Shown here: piece after piece, positions 17,101 through 31,269 of the stretch | Layout of the letters: each line of letters opens with the position of its first letter | How positions within the stretch are numbered: position 1 is the stretch's first letter | Sequence record: NC_019721.1 | DNA length: 40,029 nucleotides | Origin: Enterobacteria phage mEp390 | Reading direction: 5' to 3' (one strand) | Position numbers and translations under genes: made by a program | The notes under the pieces: generated by a model | What the model was told of the DNA's origin: nothing | The model's database searches: none | What the model saw: the letters and a program-made list of their open reading frames with translations, nothing else

Positions 17101-17610
17101 GCTATTACGGCGACAGTCAATGGACATACTTCCTCTATAACCACGAACGCCCAAGCCATTGCGAACGTAAACGGCCAGCTCAGCGCGATGTACAACATCA
17201 AAGTTGGGGTAACGAGTAACGGCCAGTATTACGCCGCAGGCATGGGGATCGGGGTGGAGAATACGCCATCAGGGATGCAGTCGCAGGTAATCTTCCTGGC
17301 CGACCGTTTTGCCGTTACATCCCAGGCTGGCAGCACTGTGTCCTTGCCGTTCGTGATCCAGAACGGGCAGACATTTATCAATGATGCTTTCTTCCGTGAT
17401 GCGAGTATTCAGTTCGGTAAAATTACGGATTCTCTCCAGTCTGATAATTATGTTGCCGGAAGTGCTGGCTGGCGTTGGGGTAAAGACGGAACGATGCAGA
17501 ACTACGGGAGCGACAGTTCCGGAGGCATGAAGCAGACTAACGTCACCATCAGCATTCGTGATGCTAACAGGCTCCGTGTTCAGATAGGAAAACTTACAGG
17601 AGTGTTTTAA
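14161..17610 (+). CDS. J: host specificity protein J (central tail fibre)
   Basis: 1149-aa ORF in gpJ position after I. Confidence 0.9.
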   Translation: MATDKVLKGRKGGSSSSRTPTEQPDDLQSVAKAKILVALGEGEFAGQLTGKDIYLDGTALENADGSQNFSGVTWEFRAGTQAQKYIQGIPGTENEISVGTEVSSATAWTRTFTNTQLSAVRLRLKWPSLFKQEDDGDLVGYSVNYAIDLQTDGGTWQTVLNTSVTGKTTSGYERSHRIDLPQAGSTWTIRLRKITSDANSAKIGDTMTLQSFTEVIDAKLRYPNTALLYIEFDSSQFNGSIPQISCEPRGRVIRVPDTYDPETRTYSGTWTGAFKWAWTDNPAWIFYDLVVSDRFGLGHRLTAANIDKWTLYQVAQYCDQMVPDGKGGNGTEPRYTCNVYIQDRNDAYTVLRDFAAIFRGMTYWGGDQIVALADMPRDVDYSYTRANVVGGRFTYSSSTTKSRYTTALVSWSDPGNAYADAMEPVFEQALVARYGFNQLEMTAIGCTRQSEANRKGRWGILTNNKDRVVSFDVGLDGNIPQPGYIIAVADELLSGKVMGGRISAVNGRVIKLDRVADAAAGDRLILNLPSGVSQSRTIQAVNGESVTVTTAYSETPQAEAVWVVESDELYAQQYRVISVSEKDDGTFSITGAWHDPDKYARIDTGAIIDQRPVSVIPPGNQSPPANIEISSFSVVQQNISVETMRVSWDQAQNAIAYEAQWRRNDGNWVNVPRSSTTSFDVPGIYAGRYLVRVRAINAAEISSGWGYSEEKTLTGKVGNPPKPVGFIASENVVFGIELNWGFSANTDDTLKTEIQYSLTGTGDDAMLLADVPYPQRKYQQMGLKAGQIFWYRAQLVDRTGNESGYTDWVRGQASIDVSDITDVILEEIKDSDTFKDLIENAVDSNEKIAGMADEIKNHADELEQQAKDIQENADGLAQAEVKIDEISVSIDGMTGGVKNSAIAIIQNGLAQVATRKRLSATVAGNSAQLDRIDEVIVNEKEATARALLSLQTNVNGNTASINSLSQTVSNYQQSTATQINAITATVNGHTSSITTNAQAIANVNGQLSAMYNIKVGVTSNGQYYAAGMGIGVENTPSGMQSQVIFLADRFAVTSQAGSTVSLPFVIQNGQTFINDAFFRDASIQFGKITDSLQSDNYVAGSAGWRWGKDGTMQNYGSDSSGGMKQTNVTISIRDANRLRVQIGKLTGVF

Positions 17611-21663: not shown

Positions 21664-22674
21664 TTACTGCCCCCCAACCACCGGTACTACAGATATTTTG
21701 CGGTTGTATCTTGCAGTCTGCGAAGCATTTTTGTGGCCTGATATTTCTTGTTTCTCATGCAGCGTACCTTCCAAATCAGATATCCCTTTGGCTTTCAGGT
21801 CATGGAAAGTAAAGTCAAATTCGATCTCAGGGAATTTCTCAGCGGCTAACTTTTTCGCCTTCATCCACTGCGCATTAAAAGCATCTCGTGTATATCTCGA
21901 TCCTGATGGCTGGTGAATAACATACATGCTAACCATTCCTTCTTTGAGAGGTAAGGAATCAGCCAAGGAGATTGCACGCCTTAAGCGATCGGTCCATTTT
22001 TTGATTTGACTCACTGCTGTCTTACTTTGCTGAATCATGATTCCTTCATGAAGAAGCTGCGTTTTTTTTAGATCAAGAATATCCCCCTGTCTAGCGCAGC
22101 ATAGATAGGCAACCTCCATAGCGATTTTTACAGGAATAGTTGCAATACTGTACAGAGCATCATATTCGTTATCAAAAACGTAACGAGTCCTGGCCTTTTC
22201 TTTAAACTGCTTTACCCCTTGGCAAGGGTTCATCTTCACTTTTCCACGCTCATATGCCCACCTGAATACCCTCGACATAAACGCTTTTTCTCGGTTCGCC
22301 TGAACTCTGCTCTTAACCCCCCTCTTATCCATATACTTTCTGATGTGCTCCGGCTTAATGTTTTCTGGTTTCATTTTGCCGAAAACGACATTTACCTTTG
22401 AACCATATTTCCGGTAATCCTTTCTGGTTTCTGTTGCCAGATCATGAAAGTCACCAGAGTTAAAAAACTCTTCGCAAAGAGCATGAAAGTTGGAACCAAC
22501 CTTTATATCGTTGATGAAGTTTTCATACGCTGCCCAGACCTGAGACTTTGTGAGATCGAGGTTGCACAATCTCACAGTTCTCCCGTCTGGCGTTCTGAAC
22601 TCATAAGCAGATTTGCCTCGACGCACGCGGGGCGGCATCCAGTTATCTTCTGGGTTTTTGCGGATTCTGGGCAT
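21664..22674 (-). CDS. int: tyrosine-type site-specific integrase
   Basis: 336-aa ORF with C-terminal HxxR and RY catalytic-region motifs (HDLKAKG, ARYNRK); adjacent to att core. Confidence 0.88.
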   Translation of the reverse strand: MPRIRKNPEDNWMPPRVRRGKSAYEFRTPDGRTVRLCNLDLTKSQVWAAYENFINDIKVGSNFHALCEEFFNSGDFHDLATETRKDYRKYGSKVNVVFGKMKPENIKPEHIRKYMDKRGVKSRVQANREKAFMSRVFRWAYERGKVKMNPCQGVKQFKEKARTRYVFDNEYDALYSIATIPVKIAMEVAYLCCARQGDILDLKKTQLLHEGIMIQQSKTAVSQIKKWTDRLRRAISLADSLPLKEGMVSMYVIHQPSGSRYTRDAFNAQWMKAKKLAAEKFPEIEFDFTFHDLKAKGISDLEGTLHEKQEISGHKNASQTARYNRKISVVPVVGGQ

Positions 22675-25011: not shown

Positions 25012-25664
25012 TGGGCGGCCTCCTGGCGGTCTATGCGTTCAATTTCAGCCAGAATAAGTGCGCCCGCTTTCACCAGGTCACGGCGTGGATTTGTAGGTTT
25101 CCACCATTCTGGTGCCCACGGCCAGTCCAATGGAATTCGGTTAAAGGAATGGATGGTATTCAGTACGTAGCATGAGGATGCCCACAATAACTGGGATTCT
25201 CCGTACTGGTCGTCATGCTCAGGCGTCCAGCCCTCAACAGATTGCTGGCGTTGACGCTCTGAAATCACTGACTGAACTGCATTGGATAGCGATTTCACAC
25301 CGCTGGCCCGCACTTCAGCCAGAAAAGCGGATGTCGCCGGGGTGCTTTCGAGAAATTGCCTTGTCTTTTCAAGAACGCACCAATCCGGTACAGCTGCACC
25401 TGAAAGCGATCCATTGCCACGGCGTTCTCCTGTATCGCATGAATTGAATATCTCAAGAAGCTGAGTCTTCAGCCCCGCATTCTCCGCAGCCAGCGCCTCA
25501 GCATCATTGCGAACCTTACGCAGTTCCAGTACAGCAACCTGAACTGCATAAGCGAACATAGCGCAAGGGCGGTTACAGTCTGTCTCAGCATCGCGCTGCA
25601 TGTTCACTGCAACAGTCATCAGCTCATCCAGCTGTTCGGCGGTCATTGGTTTATTGGCTGTCAT
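25008..25664 (-). CDS. hypothetical early protein
   Basis: ORF on the minus strand; start chosen at ATG with AGGA RBS 9 nt upstream (track ORF extends to 25805). Confidence 0.45.
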   Translation of the reverse strand: MTANKPMTAEQLDELMTVAVNMQRDAETDCNRPCAMFAYAVQVAVLELRKVRNDAEALAAENAGLKTQLLEIFNSCDTGERRGNGSLSGAAVPDWCVLEKTRQFLESTPATSAFLAEVRASGVKSLSNAVQSVISERQRQQSVEGWTPEHDDQYGESQLLWASSCYVLNTIHSFNRIPLDWPWAPEWWKPTNPRRDLVKAGALILAEIERIDRQEAAQ

Positions 25665-26685
25665 GATCATTTTCCTGCTGCAGTTTGTATTTCTTAACGA
25701 AGTGGGCCACAGCCTTTGACTGGCTAGCGGCAATGGTTTTGTCACCCATGTCCAGCCAAACGGTTTTTCCGCGATACAGTGAGGCCCGACCAATGTCTTT
25801 ACCATCGAGCATCACATACAGAGTTCGTCCGCGAATTTCTGTGGTCGGGACTGGCTGTGACAAGCGATACGTTTCACGCGCTTCCGCAATCGCTTTGTGC
25901 TCATCCATAATTGCCAGCGCTTCAGCAAGGGCAGTTCCTTCAAGAGTGAAAACACCTTCATCACTGATCGTCGCCTGAGCCATCAGCTCAACAAAACGGC
26001 GCGCGTTCTTTACGCTAAGTTCCGGCGCGATAGAACTGCGGGTAACTTTCTTTTTGCCCTGGGCAGCCGCTACAGCCTTATCATGCTGGAGAACTTTTCC
26101 GGCCTGTTCGCCATACTCCATAACGCGATCAACTGCGACGTCTACTGACACCGCACCGGATTTAACTTCCTGCTGAACGTCATGGTTCGCAGTGCTCAGG
26201 AGAAGCAATTTCTCTACCGTGGCCACTGACTTATTGACCAGTTTTGCTATTTCGCTGGTGGTCTGGTTGAACGCGTTATGTAGCTCCTGAATAACTGCGG
26301 CCTGTTCCATATCGGAAAGCGGTAGTTGGTTGTTACTGGTCATGATTCGCGCCAGCCGCTGAACATCGTTACCGTTGAACGGCATGATGTGGATGCGGTC
26401 TACTGGCTTGCCAGCTTCAGCACAGCGCGCATAGCAGCGACGGCGGCGGTGACCTTCGACAACCCATACACCACCTTCATCACGGGCGATAACTTCCAGC
26501 GGTGGAACTGATCCGCCGTTCATCAGGTAGTTAAATAGGTCCTCATCAGCCTGGCGGGTGCGTTCATCATCTTCACGTTTGTTGAAACCTTCACGAACAT
26601 GGATATCGGAAAGGGCGATAAACATCCCGGTATCGGTGCGCTTAATTACACCGGCCTTGGTCATTTGCTTGAATGAGTTAGCCAT
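25651..26685 (-). CDS. ParB-like nuclease domain protein
   Basis: ParB N-terminal signature VVEGHRRRR; start chosen at internal ATG (MANSFKQ) with GAGG RBS (track ORF extends to 26820). Confidence 0.6.
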   Translation of the reverse strand: MANSFKQMTKAGVIKRTDTGMFIALSDIHVREGFNKREDDERTRQADEDLFNYLMNGGSVPPLEVIARDEGGVWVVEGHRRRRCYARCAEAGKPVDRIHIMPFNGNDVQRLARIMTSNNQLPLSDMEQAAVIQELHNAFNQTTSEIAKLVNKSVATVEKLLLLSTANHDVQQEVKSGAVSVDVAVDRVMEYGEQAGKVLQHDKAVAAAQGKKKVTRSSIAPELSVKNARRFVELMAQATISDEGVFTLEGTALAEALAIMDEHKAIAEARETYRLSQPVPTTEIRGRTLYVMLDGKDIGRASLYRGKTVWLDMGDKTIAASQSKAVAHFVKKYKLQQENDHDSQ

Positions 26686-27044
26686 CAGAGAGCAACCTCG
26701 TTCTTCATGGAAATCACCACAGGAGGCAGTTCGCGCAGTTCTCGCTGAGCTTCCAGCAAGTGCATGTTGGTAGGCGTTTTGGTGTGGCGCTCTTCGATGC
26801 GGTCGCACTCTTTGGCCCAACTGGCAACATCCTCACGTAGGGTGGCGTTCTGCTCAGCCAGTTCCTTCCGCTGCGCCATCGCTTCACAGAGCGCGACGCT
26901 GGTAACATCAAGGCGTGTAGCCAGTTCATTAACCATCCAGCCGTAAGCGGCAGGAAGGAGAGAGGCGGCCTTACGAGCTGAGTCGATAAGTTGCTCCCGT
27001 GTCATGCGTGGTTGTAACTCGGTGACGTTCTGTGTGTTCGTCAT
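26685..27044 (-). CDS. hypothetical coiled-coil early protein
   Basis: start chosen at ATG with GGAG RBS (MTNTQNV); stop overlaps next start. Confidence 0.45.
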   Translation of the reverse strand: MTNTQNVTELQPRMTREQLIDSARKAASLLPAAYGWMVNELATRLDVTSVALCEAMAQRKELAEQNATLREDVASWAKECDRIEERHTKTPTNMHLLEAQRELRELPPVVISMKNEVAL

Positions 27045-27870
27045 GGATAGTTTCTCCGTGTTATAAGCGCTCTGCACAGCGCTGATTTTTGGTTGCACGA
27101 ATCCCTCGCCGTTTGGCGACAAAAAATAAAGGGGTTTCGTTTTAGTAAGCACCCAACCAGGGCACTTAGTGAAACGGGCGGCTGCCACCACCAATTAGCT
27201 TCTCCACAATTGGGAGCGCGTTCCCCTGAGTTGATTTAACGACTGAGGCCTCTCAAGGAACTGGCCGAACGCGCTTTCAGTTGTGAAAAGGGGCGGTCGA
27301 CATTAAGGACATTCACAACTGCCGACCGCCAAGACTACACACAGCATCTGGTACAGCTACTACGGTTTACACAACTGGAAGCGCACTCCGTTCGTTTACT
27401 TACCTGTCATCCACAACCGATAGTTGATGGAATGCGCTTTCATGTTGTGTGCCGGTCTTTCCCGGCTGTCAGTTCTTTATTGCCATTTGAACTCATCGGC
27501 CTAACGTGTTTTAACGACCTTTCCCGTTTGCATAATCTTGTCGCGGCGGTTATCGCTGCCGAAGCGCCACTGTCCAGGACATTTATCAGGACCGTCTCCA
27601 AGTGGTAACTCTTCCAGTCCCGCTAAGCACCTGCAGAGATGCTTAGCGTGATTGGCTGATATCCTCGTCTCTTCCGAGGTGTCACACCGTATCGCCACGC
27701 TGGTGAAGCGTCTCTGGCTGTCGTACACAACTGTCTTGCACATTCCGGCTACCCGCTGGATCTGGATACTGAAAGGAATCCACGGACCGCTGCGGCACAT
27801 GTGCCATATACCGTACTGCTTACTACCACACCGGCGCAGGTAAATGTCAGTACCTGTGGCGTGATTTAAA

Positions 27871-27921
27871 TGTAGGATATCTTACTTCATTGTGTCAACA
27901 CTTAAAGTAGGAAAACTTACA
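27871..27921. promoter_or_regulatory. oL operator sites / pL region
   Basis: GTAGGATATCTTAC and GTAGGAAAACTTAC, same family as the three sites upstream of cro. Confidence 0.6.
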
Positions 27922-27930
27922 TTGATAGTG

Positions 27931-27954
27931 AAAAAAAACCGACAAGAATGTCGG
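27931..27954 (-). terminator. intrinsic terminator downstream of cI (minus strand)
   Basis: on minus strand CCGACA-TTCT-TGTCGG followed by T8. Confidence 0.65.
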
Positions 27955-27972
27955 TCTTTAGAAGAGGGGATT

Positions 27973-28629
27973 TTACAGGTCAGTAACTACTTGTTTTACT
28001 ACACCAACAATTTTGCAGTTACCATTTACTTCCATAACACGATAGTTAGGGTTCAGCGGAACAAGATATTTTAATGGCCCATCAATAACAAACTTTTTGA
28101 GAGTTGCCTCAGCAGAACCGACAATTTGAGCGACAACAATTTTTCCATTTACTTCTTGTGGGCTGCCGTAATCGGGGTCCACCACGACGAATGAGCCTTC
28201 CGGGATACTTGGTGCTCCGTTTGGATTTGTCATCGAGTCACCGCGAACACGTAGTGCAAAACCTTCATCTGATAAGCTGGCCGTAGTGAATATCCATTCG
28301 GAAATATCACCTTCAGTTATTGGAGCTCCACTCTCTGTCCATTCCCCAGCCTGTACCCAAGATAGGATAGGGATTTTCTTTACACCAAACTTCTCAGTCG
28401 GCTTATAAAGAATCTCGTCACAGTCTGGATCACCGTGTCCCGTAATTATCCACTGAGGGTTAGTTTTTAAGGCAGCCGCCAGCCCCTGTAGGTTAGAGCC
28501 ACCAGGTTCATAATCACCAGACTCCCATCCTGTAACCGTTACTCGGTTTACGCCTACCAGCTTGGCGAGAACAGCCTGGGTGAGCTTCAGCTCTTTGCGT
28601 CTTGCGCGGATGCGTTCATTCATTTTCAT
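27973..28629 (-). CDS. cI: CI-like repressor (HTH plus S24 autopeptidase domain)
   Basis: 218-aa ORF with XRE-type HTH (LTQAVLAKLVGVNRVTVTGWE) and S24 motifs (GDSM, later Lys); start codon abuts first operator. Confidence 0.88.
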   Translation of the reverse strand: MKMNERIRARRKELKLTQAVLAKLVGVNRVTVTGWESGDYEPGGSNLQGLAAALKTNPQWIITGHGDPDCDEILYKPTEKFGVKKIPILSWVQAGEWTESGAPITEGDISEWIFTTASLSDEGFALRVRGDSMTNPNGAPSIPEGSFVVVDPDYGSPQEVNGKIVVAQIVGSAEATLKKFVIDGPLKYLVPLNPNYRVMEVNGNCKIVGVVKQVVTDL

Positions 28630-28691
28630 GTAGGCAATCCTACCATTTTATGATGTAGGAATCCTTGACCTCTTAATGTAAGATATCCTAC
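28630..28691. promoter_or_regulatory. oR operator sites with pRM/pR
   Basis: three 14-bp sites GTAGGCAATCCTAC, GTAGGAATCCTTGA, GTAAGATATCCTAC spaced about 23-25 bp between divergent cI and cro. Confidence 0.65.
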
Positions 28692-28728
28692 TATCATGAT
28701 GTGTGTTTCCCTTACATTTGAGGCAAAA

Positions 28729-28926
28729 ATGAAAAAAGATGATGTGGTTTCTTACTTCGGCAGCGTGGGGAACGTAGCGAAGGCATTAGGAATTTCCCAT
28801 GCATCGGTTTCTGGGTGGGGTGAAGTAATCCCAAAAGGTAGGGCATTTGAGATTCAGGCACTGACTTCTGAAAAGCTGAAAGTCGATCCATCCCTTTACG
28901 CAAAGCCTAATCAAAACGCTGCTTAA
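28729..28926 (+). CDS. cro: Cro-like HTH regulator
   Basis: 65-aa product from ATG after GAGG RBS (MKKDDVV...), HTH-like VAKALGISHASVSGW; divergent from cI. Confidence 0.65.
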   Translation: MKKDDVVSYFGSVGNVAKALGISHASVSGWGEVIPKGRAFEIQALTSEKLKVDPSLYAKPNQNAA

Positions 28927-28962
28927 TTTTAACTACCAAAGGAAATACAAAGGGGTAGGTGA

Positions 28963-29418
28963 ATGGATTACGAATTTTTTGAGCGACTTGGTAAATCAAT
29001 GCCAGGGTCCGTAGAAATTGACCGAGAAAACTCAACGGTAACGCTTACGGGTTGGAAGTTAGAAAAGTTTGACTATGCCAACAACCAAAAGCAGTGCGCC
29101 GATAGTATCGAAGATCAGCCCAGCGGGTTTAGGACTTCTCCACTTAAAAGTGAAGACACGTTCCCGAAAACAATTCTCTTGGTAAATGGCGGTTTTAAGC
29201 GGGTGGTTAATCCACTCACCAATACCGATTCCCACGCATCCAAGAGCGATAAGACCTGTAGCACCTGCTGGAAATGCGGGGAACATACCAGCGCCAGCAA
29301 GCAAGAAAACGAAAGCTCCGAGAGCAATCAGTACCTTGTACCAGGCATCAAGGGCCAACTTAGAAAGTGGATTTTGCAAGTTCGTAGATTCCTTTTTACG
29401 CCGATAGGCAAATTCTAA
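28963..29418 (+). CDS. hypothetical protein in cII position (low confidence)
   Basis: 151-aa ORF with strong GGGGTAGGTGA RBS and purine-rich first codon positions; C-terminal half low complexity; fully overlapped by an antisense ORF. Confidence 0.35.
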   Translation: MDYEFFERLGKSMPGSVEIDRENSTVTLTGWKLEKFDYANNQKQCADSIEDQPSGFRTSPLKSEDTFPKTILLVNGGFKRVVNPLTNTDSHASKSDKTCSTCWKCGEHTSASKQENESSESNQYLVPGIKGQLRKWILQVRRFLFTPIGKF

Positions 29419-29434
29419 GCGAAGGAAAAACAAC

Positions 29435-29905
29435 ATGGTAGAGCCAAGCCTGAAAGAAGTAGTGAAAACGATGTGCAAAGCGTACCCGGGTGGCCGTGAG
29501 GCTATGGCCGGTGCTCTCGGCATGTCAGTGACGCAGTTCAATAACAACCTGTACGAGAAGAACGGCTGCCGCTTCTTTGAAGTGAACGAGCTGGAAGCGA
29601 TGGAAGACATTTCAAACACGTCTCTCCTGGCTGATTACTTCGCGCAACGTCGCGGCGCTCTGCTGGTGGACGTTCCGCAGTTGGAAGACCTCGATCGCGT
29701 AGACCTGTTTACCCGCGCAATGAGAACTGCAGCAGCACGCGGTCAGGTTGATCAGATTATCCAGAAAGCCCTGGAAGACGGAGTGATTGAGCCGCATGAA
29801 GCCGAAGAGATTAACGAGCATCACCGCCGTCATCTGGCAGCGCGTGAAGAAGAAATACGCGCGATTGTTGCGCTGTTTAGCCGTAAGAAAAGCCCAAAAA
29901 AGTGA
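29435..29905 (+). CDS. phage regulatory protein CII-like (CP76 family)
   Basis: 156-aa ORF, AAGGA RBS; sequence MSVTQFNNNL... resembles CP76-type CII regulators as recalled. Confidence 0.5.
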   Translation: MVEPSLKEVVKTMCKAYPGGREAMAGALGMSVTQFNNNLYEKNGCRFFEVNELEAMEDISNTSLLADYFAQRRGALLVDVPQLEDLDRVDLFTRAMRTAAARGQVDQIIQKALEDGVIEPHEAEEINEHHRRHLAAREEEIRAIVALFSRKKSPKK

Positions 29906-29967
29906 CGCCAGCGGGCGTGCAGGCCCCTGGCGTCTTGGCGTGTCGTATTCAGTGGAGAAACTAACGC

Positions 29968-30306
29968 ATGAACAGTTTAAACCGATTGAGACCAGCGAAG
30001 CAATTCAGATGCCTTCCACTGGTGGGAAAAGACTCCCCGTTCGGCTATGTGGAGAGATTAAACGACCAGCCTGGTGTGAACAACTACCAGCCTGAGAACG
30101 CGATGGTAGAGGCTTTTGCTCTGATGAACGAGAAGGGGCGTGAGGAATGGCTGAAGTTAACCGGCGGTTCAAAGACCACTACGGCGTCCCGGTCCATGTC
30201 ATCAGATGGGAGCCACAGACTCGACGCGTTATATACCTTCGCGAAGGTTACGATCATGAGTGCTTCAGCCCTCTTGAACAATTCCAGCGTAAATTTACAG
30301 AGTTAA
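29968..30306 (+). CDS. hypothetical protein (uncertain; only N-terminal part looks protein-like)
   Basis: 112-aa ORF with GGAGAAA RBS; C-terminal portion Ser/Thr-rich and overlapped by ORF 30147..30332 in another frame. Confidence 0.3.
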   Translation: MNSLNRLRPAKQFRCLPLVGKDSPFGYVERLNDQPGVNNYQPENAMVEAFALMNEKGREEWLKLTGGSKTTTASRSMSSDGSHRLDALYTFAKVTIMSASALLNNSSVNLQS

Positions 30307-30332
30307 AGGACGACCATGAGCAGAATCTTTGA
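30147..30332 (+). CDS. hypothetical small protein
   Basis: 61-aa ORF with GAGG RBS, end overlaps replication gene start. Confidence 0.35.
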   Translation: MAEVNRRFKDHYGVPVHVIRWEPQTRRVIYLREGYDHECFSPLEQFQRKFTELKDDHEQNL

Positions 30333-31269
30333 CATCGTCCAGTCAATGTCAGGCCAGAAGAACGTCATTGTTCTTCCCAGGCCGTACCTGCTGTTCTTTA
30401 AAGAAGACCAGCAGGCTCATGCGCTGGCGGCAGTTCTTAACAACCTCGTTTTCTGGTCAGCTTTTGGGGGAGAAGACGGCTGGTTCTATAAAACTCACAA
30501 GGAGCTTGGAGCTGAGGCTGGCGAATTAACCGAAGACCAGACAGAGCGGCTGGTTAAAAAGCTGGTAAACAAGTATCTGCCTGGCGTGATCGAGACCTGT
30601 TCTCGAAAGGTCAATGGCACGCCAACCAAGCATTATCGTATCGACGGCGATGCTCTAATTTCATTAATCTTTCCAGAAAATAACGATTACGCAAAAGTAC
30701 GGAATGGAAAACGTGAAGATGCGGAATCAAAACCGCGAAACTGCGTTTCTCAATCCGCGAATAACAGTAATCTTGGGAGCCGCGAAAGTACGGAATCCTA
30801 TCTCTATACAGACTTTAATACAGAGTTAAACAAGCAGACTATTAAACCTATTTGTCCGGTTGCGCCGCAACCAGACGGTGATGTGTTGATCACCGATCAG
30901 GCTAAACAGGTTTTGACCCATCTGAACCAGGTGACCAGTTCGCGTTATCAGGTCTCAACCACTTCGCTGCAAAACATTCGTGCCCGAATTGGGGAAGGTT
31001 ACACCGTTGAAGAGTTATCACTGGTGGTGGACTACTGCAACGCCAAGTGGAGCGAAGACCTGACGATGGCGGCCTACCTTCGACCACAGACGCTTTTCCA
31101 ACCTTCCAAATTCCCTGGCTACCTGAAGTCAGCCAACAGCTGGGCCAAAGCTGGGCGTCCTCGTCGCGTCAACGGAGAGTGGGCCCGAGAAGATGGCGTA
31201 TTCCGTTCCAGCTTCCAGAACACTGACTACAGCAGAATACCGGCAGGTTTCAGAGGAGCGAACTCATGA
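30316..31269 (+). CDS. replication protein (conserved phage C-terminal domain)
   Basis: 317-aa ORF in the O position after cro/cII-like genes; C-terminal segment resembles the conserved phage replication-protein C-terminus. Confidence 0.6.
   Translation: MSRIFDIVQSMSGQKNVIVLPRPYLLFFKEDQQAHALAAVLNNLVFWSAFGGEDGWFYKTHKELGAEAGELTEDQTERLVKKLVNKYLPGVIETCSRKVNGTPTKHYRIDGDALISLIFPENNDYAKVRNGKREDAESKPRNCVSQSANNSNLGSRESTESYLYTDFNTELNKQTIKPICPVAPQPDGDVLITDQAKQVLTHLNQVTSSRYQVSTTSLQNIRARIGEGYTVEELSLVVDYCNAKWSEDLTMAAYLRPQTLFQPSKFPGYLKSANSWAKAGRPRRVNGEWAREDGVFRSSFQNTDYSRIPAGFRGANS

Follow-up and report, generated by a model that had tools for sequence, protein, structure and literature searches.

The immunity region of Enterobacteria phage mEp390 (sequence record NC_019721.1; the window analysed is the whole record of 40,029 nucleotides) raises the question of what its repressor recognises, and of how a cI gene whose start codon touches an operator is transcribed and translated. 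The features on which the answer is built are collected in Table 1.

The gene content corresponds to the immunity region proposed in a preliminary description of this DNA. A repressor gene with HTH_3 and Peptidase_S24 domains is divergent from a small cro of the P22_Cro family, with a CII gene of the CP76 type downstream; this is the arrangement of a lambdoid CI/Cro switch. A tripartite OR, with a degenerate OR2, lies over the divergent promoters, and further operators lie over the leftward promoter past cI. The best PDB matches of the N-terminal domain of cI (residues 3–64) are to P22 c2 (1ADR, 2R1J and 3JXB, E ~7e-15), and the C-terminal domain matches that of lambda cI (3e-21), the sequence and its alignment with this domain placing a putative cleavage site at Ala94–Gly95 with Ser132 and Lys178. 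Overall, cI is ~47% identical to c2-type repressors (tblastn). Among GenBank phages no close DNA relatives of cI/cro were seen, the nearest repressors being those of Yersinia YeP1-3 (72%) and of E. coli phages (60%); Enterobacter sp. ECC-219 (NZ_CP143680) has a cI that is 99% identical. A longer cro of 76 residues, beginning at the ATG at 28696, was discarded, as this start falls in a variable stretch and the conserved pair is formed by the GAGG and the ATG at 28729.

Table 1. Features of the mEp390 immunity region and of the adjoining pL leader (positions in the window)
Feature	Position	Strand	Details
Structured RNA motif, pL leader, ~150 nt	27663–27813	-	covariation, alignment folding
pL promoter	27869–27898	-	TTGACA 27898–27893, 18-bp spacer, TACATT 27874–27869; 10/12 consensus positions in scan
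OL1 operator	27870–27887		18-mer ATGTAGGATATCTTACTT on + strand; 14-bp core 27872–27885, GTAGGATATCTTAC; exact pattern and OL-side conservation
OL2 operator	27905–27922		core 27907–27920, GTAGGAAAACTTAC; exact pattern and OL-side conservation
cI intrinsic terminator	27932–27958	-	hairpin GACCGACA/UGUCGGU, then U8
cI repressor, 218 aa	27973–28629	-	Pfam HTH_3 8e-14, Peptidase_S24 4e-21
OR3 operator	28628–28645		core 28630–28643, GTAGGCAATCCTAC; exact pattern and conservation
Candidate pRM	28637–28645	-	extended -10 TGgTAGGAT; 7 nt between hexamer and cI ATG
OR2 operator, degenerate	28653–28670		core 28655–28668/9, GTAGGAATCCTTGA(C); position and conservation in homologues
pR promoter	28665–28694	+	TTGACC, 18-bp spacer, TACTAT; 9/12 consensus positions in scan
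OR1 operator	28676–28693		core 28678–28691, GTAAGATATCCTAC; exact pattern and conservation
cro, 65 aa	28729–28926	+	Pfam P22_Cro 1.6e-21; GAGG Shine-Dalgarno upstream

The five related sites reported earlier, two past the cI terminator and three between cI and cro, are all found at their places. The motif given for them, GTAGGA-N4-CTTAC, adds up to 15 bp and has to be corrected to the 14-mer GTAGG-N4-CYTAC. In exact form (GTARGN4CYTAC) 0.03 occurrences would be expected in 40 kb; four are present, each of them in the immunity region. The OR1 core is the exact reverse complement of the OL1 core. The OR3 core is a perfect palindrome that ends directly at the cI ATG at 28629, in agreement with the earlier statement that the nearest site abuts the start codon; taken as an 18-mer, OR3 includes the A and T of this codon. 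OR2 has an irregular core of 15 bp, composed of one good half (ATGTAGGAA) and one diverged half (GGTCAAGGA), the latter doubling as the -35 element of pR. With its two mismatches it stands at chance level when taken alone (32 such matches against 30 expected), and it is accepted as an operator solely for its location and for being kept in homologues. The spacing within OR, previously put at about 23–25 bp, measures 25 bp between OR3 and OR2 and 23 bp between OR2 and OR1; OL1 and OL2 are 35 bp apart, with OL2 placed upstream of the pL -35. A third OL site past OL2 was looked for and not found, the T-run of the terminator filling that place.

Phylogenetic footprinting was carried out with 64 distinct homologous upstream sequences on the OR side (cI 60–99% identical) and with 73 distinct homologous sequences on the OL side. 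On the OR side three conserved blocks, at -65 to -47, -42 to -24 and -16 to +3 with respect to the cI ATG, are separated by variable spacers at -46 to -43 and -23 to -17. OR2 corresponds to the block kept at -42 to -24, and at OR3 conservation from -16 to +3 is 98–100% with the exception of the central position, -6. The OL sites are kept as well, while their flanks and spacers vary. This pattern supports the view that the five sites behave as operators. Since conservation reaches 2 bp beyond the 14-mer on each side, the functional unit is taken to be an 18-mer with the half-site consensus ATGTAGGAT, the P22 counterpart being ATTTAAGAT; the 14 bp described earlier hold for the core, but the conserved unit is the longer one. 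A literature search for the operator strings turned up nothing relevant.

According to the promoter scan, pR is overlapped by OR1 and OR2 and pL by OL1, with OL1 and OR1 each filling the spacer and the -10 element of its promoter. The predicted start points are near 27862 for pL and at about 28699–28701 for pR. Both pL hexamers are kept across homologues, and the pR -10 retains TAnnnT in them, as read from the sequence listing. The hairpin of the cI terminator (-13.9 kcal/mol, z = -4.9) sits between the cI stop codon and OL2, and homologues, too, have a hairpin with a T-run there.

The candidate pRM for the maintenance of cI, an extended -10 element in OR3, has its predicted start at 28631 (A, -2) or at 28629 (the A of the ATG), with an expected leader of 0–2 nt. 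TGnTAGGAT, 7 nt before the ATG, is invariant in the 64 distinct sequences, although its match to the consensus is confined to TAnnnT and the TG. TAGGAT would be conserved anyway as part of the operator and is weak promoter evidence, so that only the flanking TG adds to it: T-16 and G-15 are outside the palindrome and break its symmetry, yet they are 100% conserved. No recognisable -35 element accompanies this promoter; AGGATT, 17 bp upstream, falls in the centre of OR2, at about -31 to -33, where an activator would be oddly placed. On geometrical grounds, a promoter working with OR2 occupied would need its -10 downstream of -24, which would limit the leader to ~10 nt. Two other hexamers were rejected as -10 elements. 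TACATC in OR2 (compare TACATT in pL and TACTAT in pR) varies in its last base (C, T, A or G), and repressor bound at OR1/OR2 would block such a promoter; from TACATG across the start codon the transcript would begin after both of the ATGs with which cI opens.

The absence of a leader is not arguable from a missing ribosome-binding site, because GGUAGGA, 8 nt upstream of the cI ATG, matches the sites of cro and cII (-5.6 and -5.7 kcal/mol) in its pairing with the anti-Shine-Dalgarno sequence (-5.5 kcal/mol). This element would be a usable Shine-Dalgarno sequence for any long, establishment-type transcript, and such strength would be expected of an element from which a leadered cI mRNA is normally translated. 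Only with a start at the predicted position would the element be missing from the RNA. For cI, a maintenance transcript with no leader or almost none is a plausible account and, on our analysis, the best one. Of the earlier proposal of a leaderless cI as in lambda, it is the leaderless part that survives, in this slightly widened form; the geometry is that of P22 and not that of lambda.

Alternative accounts of the cI start differ in where they place the promoter or the initiation codon. A pRM in the spacer between OR2 and OR3, with TAAAAT at -21 to -16 (28645–28650) as its -10 element, would start near -9 and give cI a leader of 9–10 nt without a Shine-Dalgarno sequence. We regard it as unlikely. 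Compared with TAGGAT, TAAAAT is the better -10 hexamer in mEp390, and A-19 (97%), A-20 (75%) and T-16 (100%) are fairly conserved, but the first hexamer position, -21, is variable (48% for the major base) and many homologues carry CAAAGT, AAAGAT or GCATGT instead; as the hexamer is not conserved, it was rejected as first choice for the pRM -10. No -35 match is found 16–18 bp upstream of it. Neither mode of translation initiation is well served by a 9-nt leader that lacks a Shine-Dalgarno sequence, which also counts against this promoter, and in P22 the counterpart is annotated within OR3 and not in the spacer.

Improbable, too, is the absence of any dedicated maintenance promoter at the ATG, in which case cI would be translated from longer transcripts with GGUAGGA as Shine-Dalgarno sequence and OR3 would only repress; such transcripts would have to come from a CII-dependent or other promoter beyond OR, further to the right. 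The presence of a CP76-type CII gene leads one to expect an establishment promoter, but the minus strand scanned from 28700 to 30400 contained no consensus promoter, and a prophage must make repressor with OR1 and OR2 occupied, so that a promoter on the right would have to read through bound repressor. The Shine-Dalgarno-like element has the correct 8-nt spacing and equals those of cro and cII in strength; an equally good match is nevertheless found at 30% of random ATGs in the window, and in a long transcript the element would lie within the hairpin of the OR3 palindrome. P22, moreover, has a mapped RM start (GenBank annotation). The least probable account is that cI begins at its second in-frame ATG (M3, 28623), the first being merely operator sequence, in which case transcripts from 28629–28631 would have a leader of 6–8 nt. 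An invariant ATG stands at codon 3, followed immediately in every homologue by the conserved N/S-E/D-R-I-R; codon 2 is free among K, N, R, Q and E, and one homologue carries an additional codon. In the first ATG, A and T agree with the outer part of the operator consensus, CCTACAT occurring at OR1, OR2 and OL1 as well. Against this, all 64 sequences have the first ATG, in frame and with no stop between it and the second, and M3 lacks a Shine-Dalgarno sequence (-3.1 kcal/mol). P22 c2 shares the internal Met, yet the 1ADR and 2R1J chains begin several residues before the residue aligned with M3, consistent with the c2 N-terminus MNTQLM... Leaderless initiation is known to be signalled by a 5'-terminal AUG (PMC8630535 and references therein), which speaks against the M3 start as well.

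The mEp390 region is thus probably best described as a P22-type (immC-like) lysis-lysogeny switch with an operator specificity of its own and a cI mRNA that is leaderless or nearly so. Switches of this kind are ordinary and well understood; it is the binding sequence that is absent from the literature searched. In the scheme that we infer, which extends to the binding of the repressor, the order in which the sites fill, the start of the transcript and the effect of OR2-bound repressor on pRM, cI dimers would recognise the 18-bp pseudo-palindromes described above. In a lysogen, cI at OR1 and OR2 would cover the spacer/-10 and the -35 of pR, and cI at OL1, aided by OL2 35 bp away, would cover pL. 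Maintenance transcription of cI would proceed from the extended -10 TGgTAGGAT inside the cI-distal half of OR3, and the 5' end of the mRNA, 0–2 nt before the AUG, would impose leaderless or nearly leaderless translation. At high repressor concentration OR3 would be occupied and pRM shut. Upon DNA damage, autocleavage at Ala94–Gly95 (Ser132/Lys178) would lift repression, and the P22-type Cro would take over the same sites after induction. During establishment, GGUAGGA would be present as an ordinary ribosome-binding site on transcripts that start to the right, at a CII-dependent promoter.

The leader transcribed from pL contains a structured RNA motif, which begins at ~+50 from the predicted pL start; it is controlled by OL/pL and lies outside the operator set. 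In an alignment of 55 sequences below 95% identity, 97.7% of the cells are paired, and covariation amounts to 0.221 against 0.110 in shuffles (0/500), slid controls giving at most 0.036. RNAalifold yields -27.8 kcal/mol for the pL sense and -11.4 kcal/mol for the opposite strand. The structure is visible in the alignment only, folding of the single sequence being no better than that of shuffles. At least 84 phage records in GenBank and at least 120 contigs in IMG/VR carry the motif downstream of strong sense promoters; they include lambdoid, epsilon15-like and P1/P7-like phages, and in several homologues the motif starts within a few nucleotides of the predicted pL start. In Rfam the block had no match, whether the cut-off was the gathering score, E<=1 or E<=10; a search for tRNA and tmRNA found none, a literature search for the motif strings brought nothing relevant, and a simple scan detected no minus-strand intrinsic terminators within the leader. 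A protein-coding gene was rejected for this block, which shows no codon periodicity and frequent 1–2 nt indels.

A tentative interpretation, which we hold to be possible but doubtful, is that OL/pL drives a previously undescribed leader RNA, and not an N-nut system, acting in a put-like manner on RNA polymerase. This RNA would work in cis, be structurally unrelated to HK022 put, and carry transcription through the ~815-nt untranslated leader and beyond; in a parallel part of the same interpretation, pRM would be an activator-independent extended -10 promoter buried in OR3. HK022 putL is likewise a structured RNA directly downstream of pL in a lambdoid phage without an N gene. The put element of HK022 is ~70 nt long and forms two stem-loops (PMC9378689), whereas the mEp390 motif extends over ~150 nt with three helical elements and is present in a single copy, with no putR-like copy after pR. 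The pL-leader block has no sequence similarity to the pL-nun/putL region of HK022.

The region defines one immunity group, characterised by its operator half-site and by the recognition helix VNRVTVTGWESG. The group is common to many prophages of Enterobacter, Kosakonia, Atlantibacter, Phytobacter, Pseudescherichia and relatives, with variants in Yersinia and in E. coli Stx2c phages, and should be useful for the prediction of superinfection immunity and for prophage annotation. For the P22 c2-operator pair, which has been well studied, it also provides a natural variant in specificity that structural and specificity work could use. The general understanding of such switches is left unchanged, and wider potential resides only in the neighbouring RNA motif of the pL leader.

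With lambda the region shares the divergent cI and cro, the tripartite OR and the OL across cI, as well as a homologous cI C-terminal domain in which the Ala-Gly, Ser and Lys residues are aligned. In both phages the -10 element lies 6–7 nt before the cI ATG, so that the transcript would start at the AUG, and the operator nearest to cI overlaps pRM, leading to negative autoregulation. The operators themselves are unrelated, those of lambda being 17-mers. Lambda OR3 stops ~10 bp from the ATG and merely touches the -10, and OR2, centred at -42, adjoins the -35, an arrangement on which activation is based. In mEp390, OR3 covers -1 to -14 including the whole candidate -10 element, and the centre of OR2 falls at about -31 to -33. 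Leaderless repressor messages have been established by 5' RACE for PaaR2 of prophage CP-933P (PMC8630535) and for cI of the telomere phage PY54 (PMC4488713). There, too, the repressor is divergent from a cro-like gene across an intergenic region of ~100 bp with operators, but repressor families and operators are different, and the start was measured in those cases and is predicted in mEp390.

Comparison of the operators with known immunity groups shows the layout of P22 and of phage 21 (imm21, as in DE3), two phages with near-identical immunity regions, and none of the five sites matches a P22 or 21 site. In all three phages spacers of 5 and 7 bp lie between the OR 18-mers, putting their centres 23 and 25 bp apart, the OL1–OL2 distance is likewise 35 bp, OL1 is placed between the -35 and -10 of pL, and OR3 lies against the repressor ATG with OR2 at the P22 OR2 position. 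With P22 the c2-family N-terminal domain of the repressor and the P22_Cro-family cro are shared. The mEp390 OR3 is 2 bp closer to the start codon and overlaps it. The annotated -10 of P22 pRM, TAAGAT in OR3 (GenBank annotation), corresponds to TAGGAT here at the same operator position, again 2 bp closer to the ATG; the extended -10 TG of the mEp390 candidate is absent in P22. The feature "5' nt of RM transcript" is annotated 4 nt before c2 (GenBank record) and lends indirect support to the leaderless reading of mEp390 cI; c2 begins at the operator-abutting ATG, its internal Met aligning with M3 of mEp390 cI.

The analogy with P22 is not complete, because pR has moved one operator to the right. 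In P22 its -35 lies at the OR3-proximal edge of OR2 and OR1 covers the start site; in mEp390 the -35 (28665–28670) lies in the OR1-proximal half of OR2, while OR1 occupies the spacer and has the -10 at its far edge. Of OL sites, two can be recognised here, against three annotated in P22; no gene-24/N-like gene follows the mEp390 pL, CII belongs to the CP76 (phage 186) type and not to the P22 C1 type, and the remaining genome is siphovirus-like. The specificity determinants differ as well. The operators of P22 and 21 are of the ATTTAAG-N4-CTTAAAT type, and 14 of the 18 consensus positions are common to mEp390 and P22 (ATGTAGGATATCCTACAT and ATTTAAGATATCTTAAAT, respectively), mEp390 having G where P22 has T at position 3 of the half-site, and G where P22 has A at position 6; the recognition helix of mEp390 cI is replaced by VSNVAISQWERS in P22. 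From these differences in half-site and recognition helix, P22 and mEp390 are expected to be hetero-immune.

The operator motif GTARG-N4-CYTAC occurs in four exact copies in the 40 kb of the window, against 0.03 expected, and all of them lie in the immunity region, starting at 27872, 27907, 28630 and 28678. The fifth site (OR2, 28655) carries two mismatches and taken alone would be at chance level (32 such matches in the window versus 30 expected). The preliminary description had placed five sites around the repressor gene cI, two beyond its terminator (OL) and three between cI and cro (OR) at about 23–25 bp, the first abutting the cI start codon, and every coordinate was borne out. The cI stop codon is separated from OL2 by a strong hairpin ending in U8 (−13.9 kcal/mol, z = −4.9), neighbouring sites are 25 and 23 bp apart at OR and 35 bp apart at OL, and OR3 (28630–28643) is a perfect palindrome placed directly against the ATG at 28629. 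The motif proposed there, GTAGGA-N4-CTTAC, was one base off. A copy of the operator core with one mismatch, ATAGGAAAACTTAC, was also seen inside a tail gene (17584–17597), in the chance range (2.1 such matches expected).

With cI as query, scans of genomic and viral collections yielded 127 related loci in total. The 94 with cI 60–99% identical were compared; they come mainly from Enterobacter, Kosakonia, Atlantibacter, Phytobacter, Pseudescherichia, Buttiauxella, Rahnella, Kluyvera and Tatumella, and include Yersinia phage YeP1 and E. coli phage Lys8385Vzw. Anchoring the upstream regions at the cI ATG (64 distinct sequences; negative positions count from the ATG) revealed conserved blocks at −65..−47, −42..−24 and −16..+3, with freely variable positions between them (−46..−43 and −23..−17) and beyond (−70..−67). 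On the OL side all 73 distinct sequences keep an identical order: terminator, ~8 nt, ATGTAAGWTTTCCTAC (OL2), 8 variable nt, TTGACA, 5 variable nt and GTAAGWTATCCTACATT (OL1). At the level of sequence, this pattern amounts to a clear phylogenetic footprint with five predicted protein-binding sites and, with the repressor and cro domains, bears out the proposed assignment as an immunity region with its operators. Each conserved block spans 18–19 bp, and the operator unit is therefore taken as an 18-mer, with the half-site consensus ATGTAGGAT (from ten half-sites). The −10 elements of the predicted promoters pR and pL both consist of the final operator bases (TAC) followed by three further bases.

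Coordinates of the main features in the window
Feature	Position	Strand	Remarks
Integrase-sized ORF	21664–22674		
First early-left gene after pL	26685–27044		PHROG of unknown function
Predicted structured RNA motif, about 150 nt	27663–27813	minus	long-range helix and two hairpins, loops UUCACCA and GAAGAGA
pL, predicted	27898–27869		TTGACA, 18 bp, TACATT; over OL1; promoter scan
cI, 218 aa	27973–28629	minus	HTH_3 (8e-14) and Peptidase_S24 (4e-21)
pR, predicted	28665–28694		TTGACC, 18 bp, TACTAT; over OR2 and OR1; promoter scan
cro, 65 aa	28729–28926	divergent from cI	P22_Cro family (1.6e-21)
CII-like activator, CP76/phage-186 type	29435–29905		Pfam PF06892, phrog_101; PHROGs in agreement

The genome is of the lambdoid type, with terminase, portal and tail genes in its left part and replication genes rightward. 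The domains of the 218-aa ORF identify it as a CI/LexA-type repressor, in which the autocleavage residues are present and can be assigned as Ala94-Gly95, Ser132 and Lys178. Among solved structures, its N-domain best matches that of P22 C2 (1ADR, 2R1J, 3JXB; E about 7e-15) and its C-domain that of lambda cI (3e-21). Because the CII-like activator differs from the lambda CII/P22 C1 type, lambda pRE is probably a poor guide to the establishment promoter and to the sites bound there; a scan of the minus strand at 29435–29905 gave no consensus promoter. The gap of about 500 bp between cro and cII (28927–29434) holds either a plus-strand ORF (28963–29418, 151 aa) or a minus-strand ORF resembling a membrane protein (29059–29436, 125 aa), neither with a match in Pfam or PHROGs, and may be a moron-type insertion.

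The pL transcript, with a predicted start near 27862, would run for about 815 nt without a convincing ORF or N-like gene before its first gene (27045–27862, minus strand). This leader is made of blocks (27045–27370, 27370–27485, 27500–27659 and 27661–27820) that appear separately or differently combined in related prophages. It contains TACACAACTG three times and several inverted repeats of 10–19 nt, and a simple scan found no minus-strand intrinsic terminators in it. The early-left operon also encodes, at 25651–26820 (minus strand), a protein in which an HTH domain of the ParB type is recognised (Pfam HTH_ParB, 2.8e-5).

Counterparts of the structured leader motif, which is present once in the window, lie in unannotated DNA of 84 GenBank phage records, in differing contexts. 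In lambdoid phages (mEp460, for example) the motif follows the repressor gene, in epsilon15-like phages it lies between terminase and portal genes and upstream of a minus-strand gene, and in phage P7 (1501–1589 of the compared sequence L258) and related P1-like phages the 3' half alone is placed between tRNA-Ile and ban. The epsilon15 annotation labels the corresponding stretch (L135, 1201–1342) an 'RNaseIII' mRNA-processing site, beside predicted IHF and repressor sites. At least 120 IMG/VR contigs carry an invariant 19-mer from the motif region. Rfam gave no match up to E≤10, the motif does not resemble HK022 putL, and the literature search yielded nothing on it. A coding function was ruled out by substitutions of 154/133/133 by codon phase and indels of mostly 1–2 nt. 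Over 55 sequences below 95% identity, RNAalifold gave −27.8 kcal/mol in the pL sense versus −11.4 on the other strand, paired cells reached 97.7% (90.9% in shuffles), and the covariation score was 0.221 versus 0.110 in shuffles (0/500 reached 0.221; slid controls ≤0.036). These values indicate that the block is structured as RNA. Covariation is carried by the two hairpins, CGN-UUCACCA-N'CG and CCUCG-GAAGAGA-CGAGG; most of the long-range helix does not vary, partly because its 3' strand served as search key. Promoter context depends on direction: a strong TTGAC-N17-19-TAnnnT promoter lies within 250 nt upstream in the sense direction in 47 of 89 distinct contexts, versus 0 in antisense controls. 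We hypothesize a cis-acting leader role, for instance put-like antitermination or protection from Rho across a long untranslated leader.

The leaderless cI message that had been thought probable, as in lambda, is plausible. The P22 record annotates a maintenance promoter (pRM) whose last bases are TAAGAT, within the half of OR3 that faces away from c2, and puts the '5' nt of RM transcript' 4 nt ahead of the c2 start codon. In the window this operator position is occupied by TAGGAT, 7 nt from the ATG versus 9 nt in P22. At the P22 hexamer-to-start distance transcription would begin at A(−2) (28631), and with a 7-nt discriminator at the A of the ATG. T-16 and G-15, just 5' of TAGGAT, are 100% conserved (64/64 sequences), versus 75–95% for the other outer operator positions; they lie outside the palindrome, break its symmetry and form with TAGGAT the extended −10 pattern TGnTAnnnT. 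Against the promoter reading, TAGGAT would be conserved as operator sequence anyway. In addition, the candidate pRM has no −35, and OR2, centred near −31 to −33, departs from the lambda activation geometry. A maintenance promoter must run with OR1 and OR2 filled, which places its −10 downstream of −24 and limits the leader to about 10 nt. P22 c2 begins (MNTQLM...) at the operator-abutting ATG, notwithstanding an internal Met that aligns with M3 of the window cI, and the first ATG of cI is therefore the likely start.

The sequence GGUAGGA, 8 nt 5' of the cI ATG, has an anti-SD pairing of −5.5 kcal/mol, versus −5.6 for cro and −5.7 for cII; pairing this good also occurs at 30% of ATGs drawn at random from the window. 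Since it pairs like the cro and cII sites, the lack of an SD is no argument for a leaderless cI. In lambda, the long establishment transcripts from pRE are held to carry the ribosome-binding site for cI, and we read GGUAGGA as a candidate ribosome-binding site of such long transcripts. Lambda cI mRNA is itself a well-documented leaderless repressor message. Leaderless repressor mRNAs are also described for PY54 cI (PMC4488713) and PaaR2 (PMC8630535), so that a leaderless cI in the window, if true, would be unsurprising.

Variants of the operator with GTTGGAT or GTCAGAT half-sites occur in the wider family. YeP1 (L001, 2400–2500 and 3200–3270) and Lys8385Vzw (L002, 2430–2500 and 3215–3270), with repressors 60–72% identical, keep the OR3 sequence (GGTAGGATTRCCTAC-ATG); their other operators have GTCAGAT or GTTGGAT half-sites, and the recognition helix is nearly identical to that of the window. 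These repressor-operator sets offer a possible natural series for the study of operator specificity.

Comparison with known lambdoid groups, the check proposed in the preliminary description, gave the layout of P22 (NC_002371) and of imm21 as present in DE3. All three have OR 18-mers with 5- and 7-bp gaps (23/25 bp centre to centre), OR3 adjoining the repressor ATG, OL1 inside pL between its −35 and its −10, and 35 bp from OL1 to OL2. The window consensus ATGTAGGATATCCTACAT shares 14/18 positions with ATTTAAGATATCTTAAAT, which we take to be the P22 consensus from the P22 sites and the synthetic P22 operator; the window operator strings had no match in the literature searched. The recognition helix (VNRVTVTGWESG) differs from that of P22 (VSNVAISQWERS), and the module in the window is therefore of P22 type but has another specificity. 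Its OR lies 2 bp nearer the repressor gene than in P22, so that the first two bases of the ATG fall within the OR3 18-mer, and pR is placed one operator further right. Unlike P22, only two OL sites are recognisable and no N-like gene follows pL. The closest model for the switch is P22, rather than lambda.
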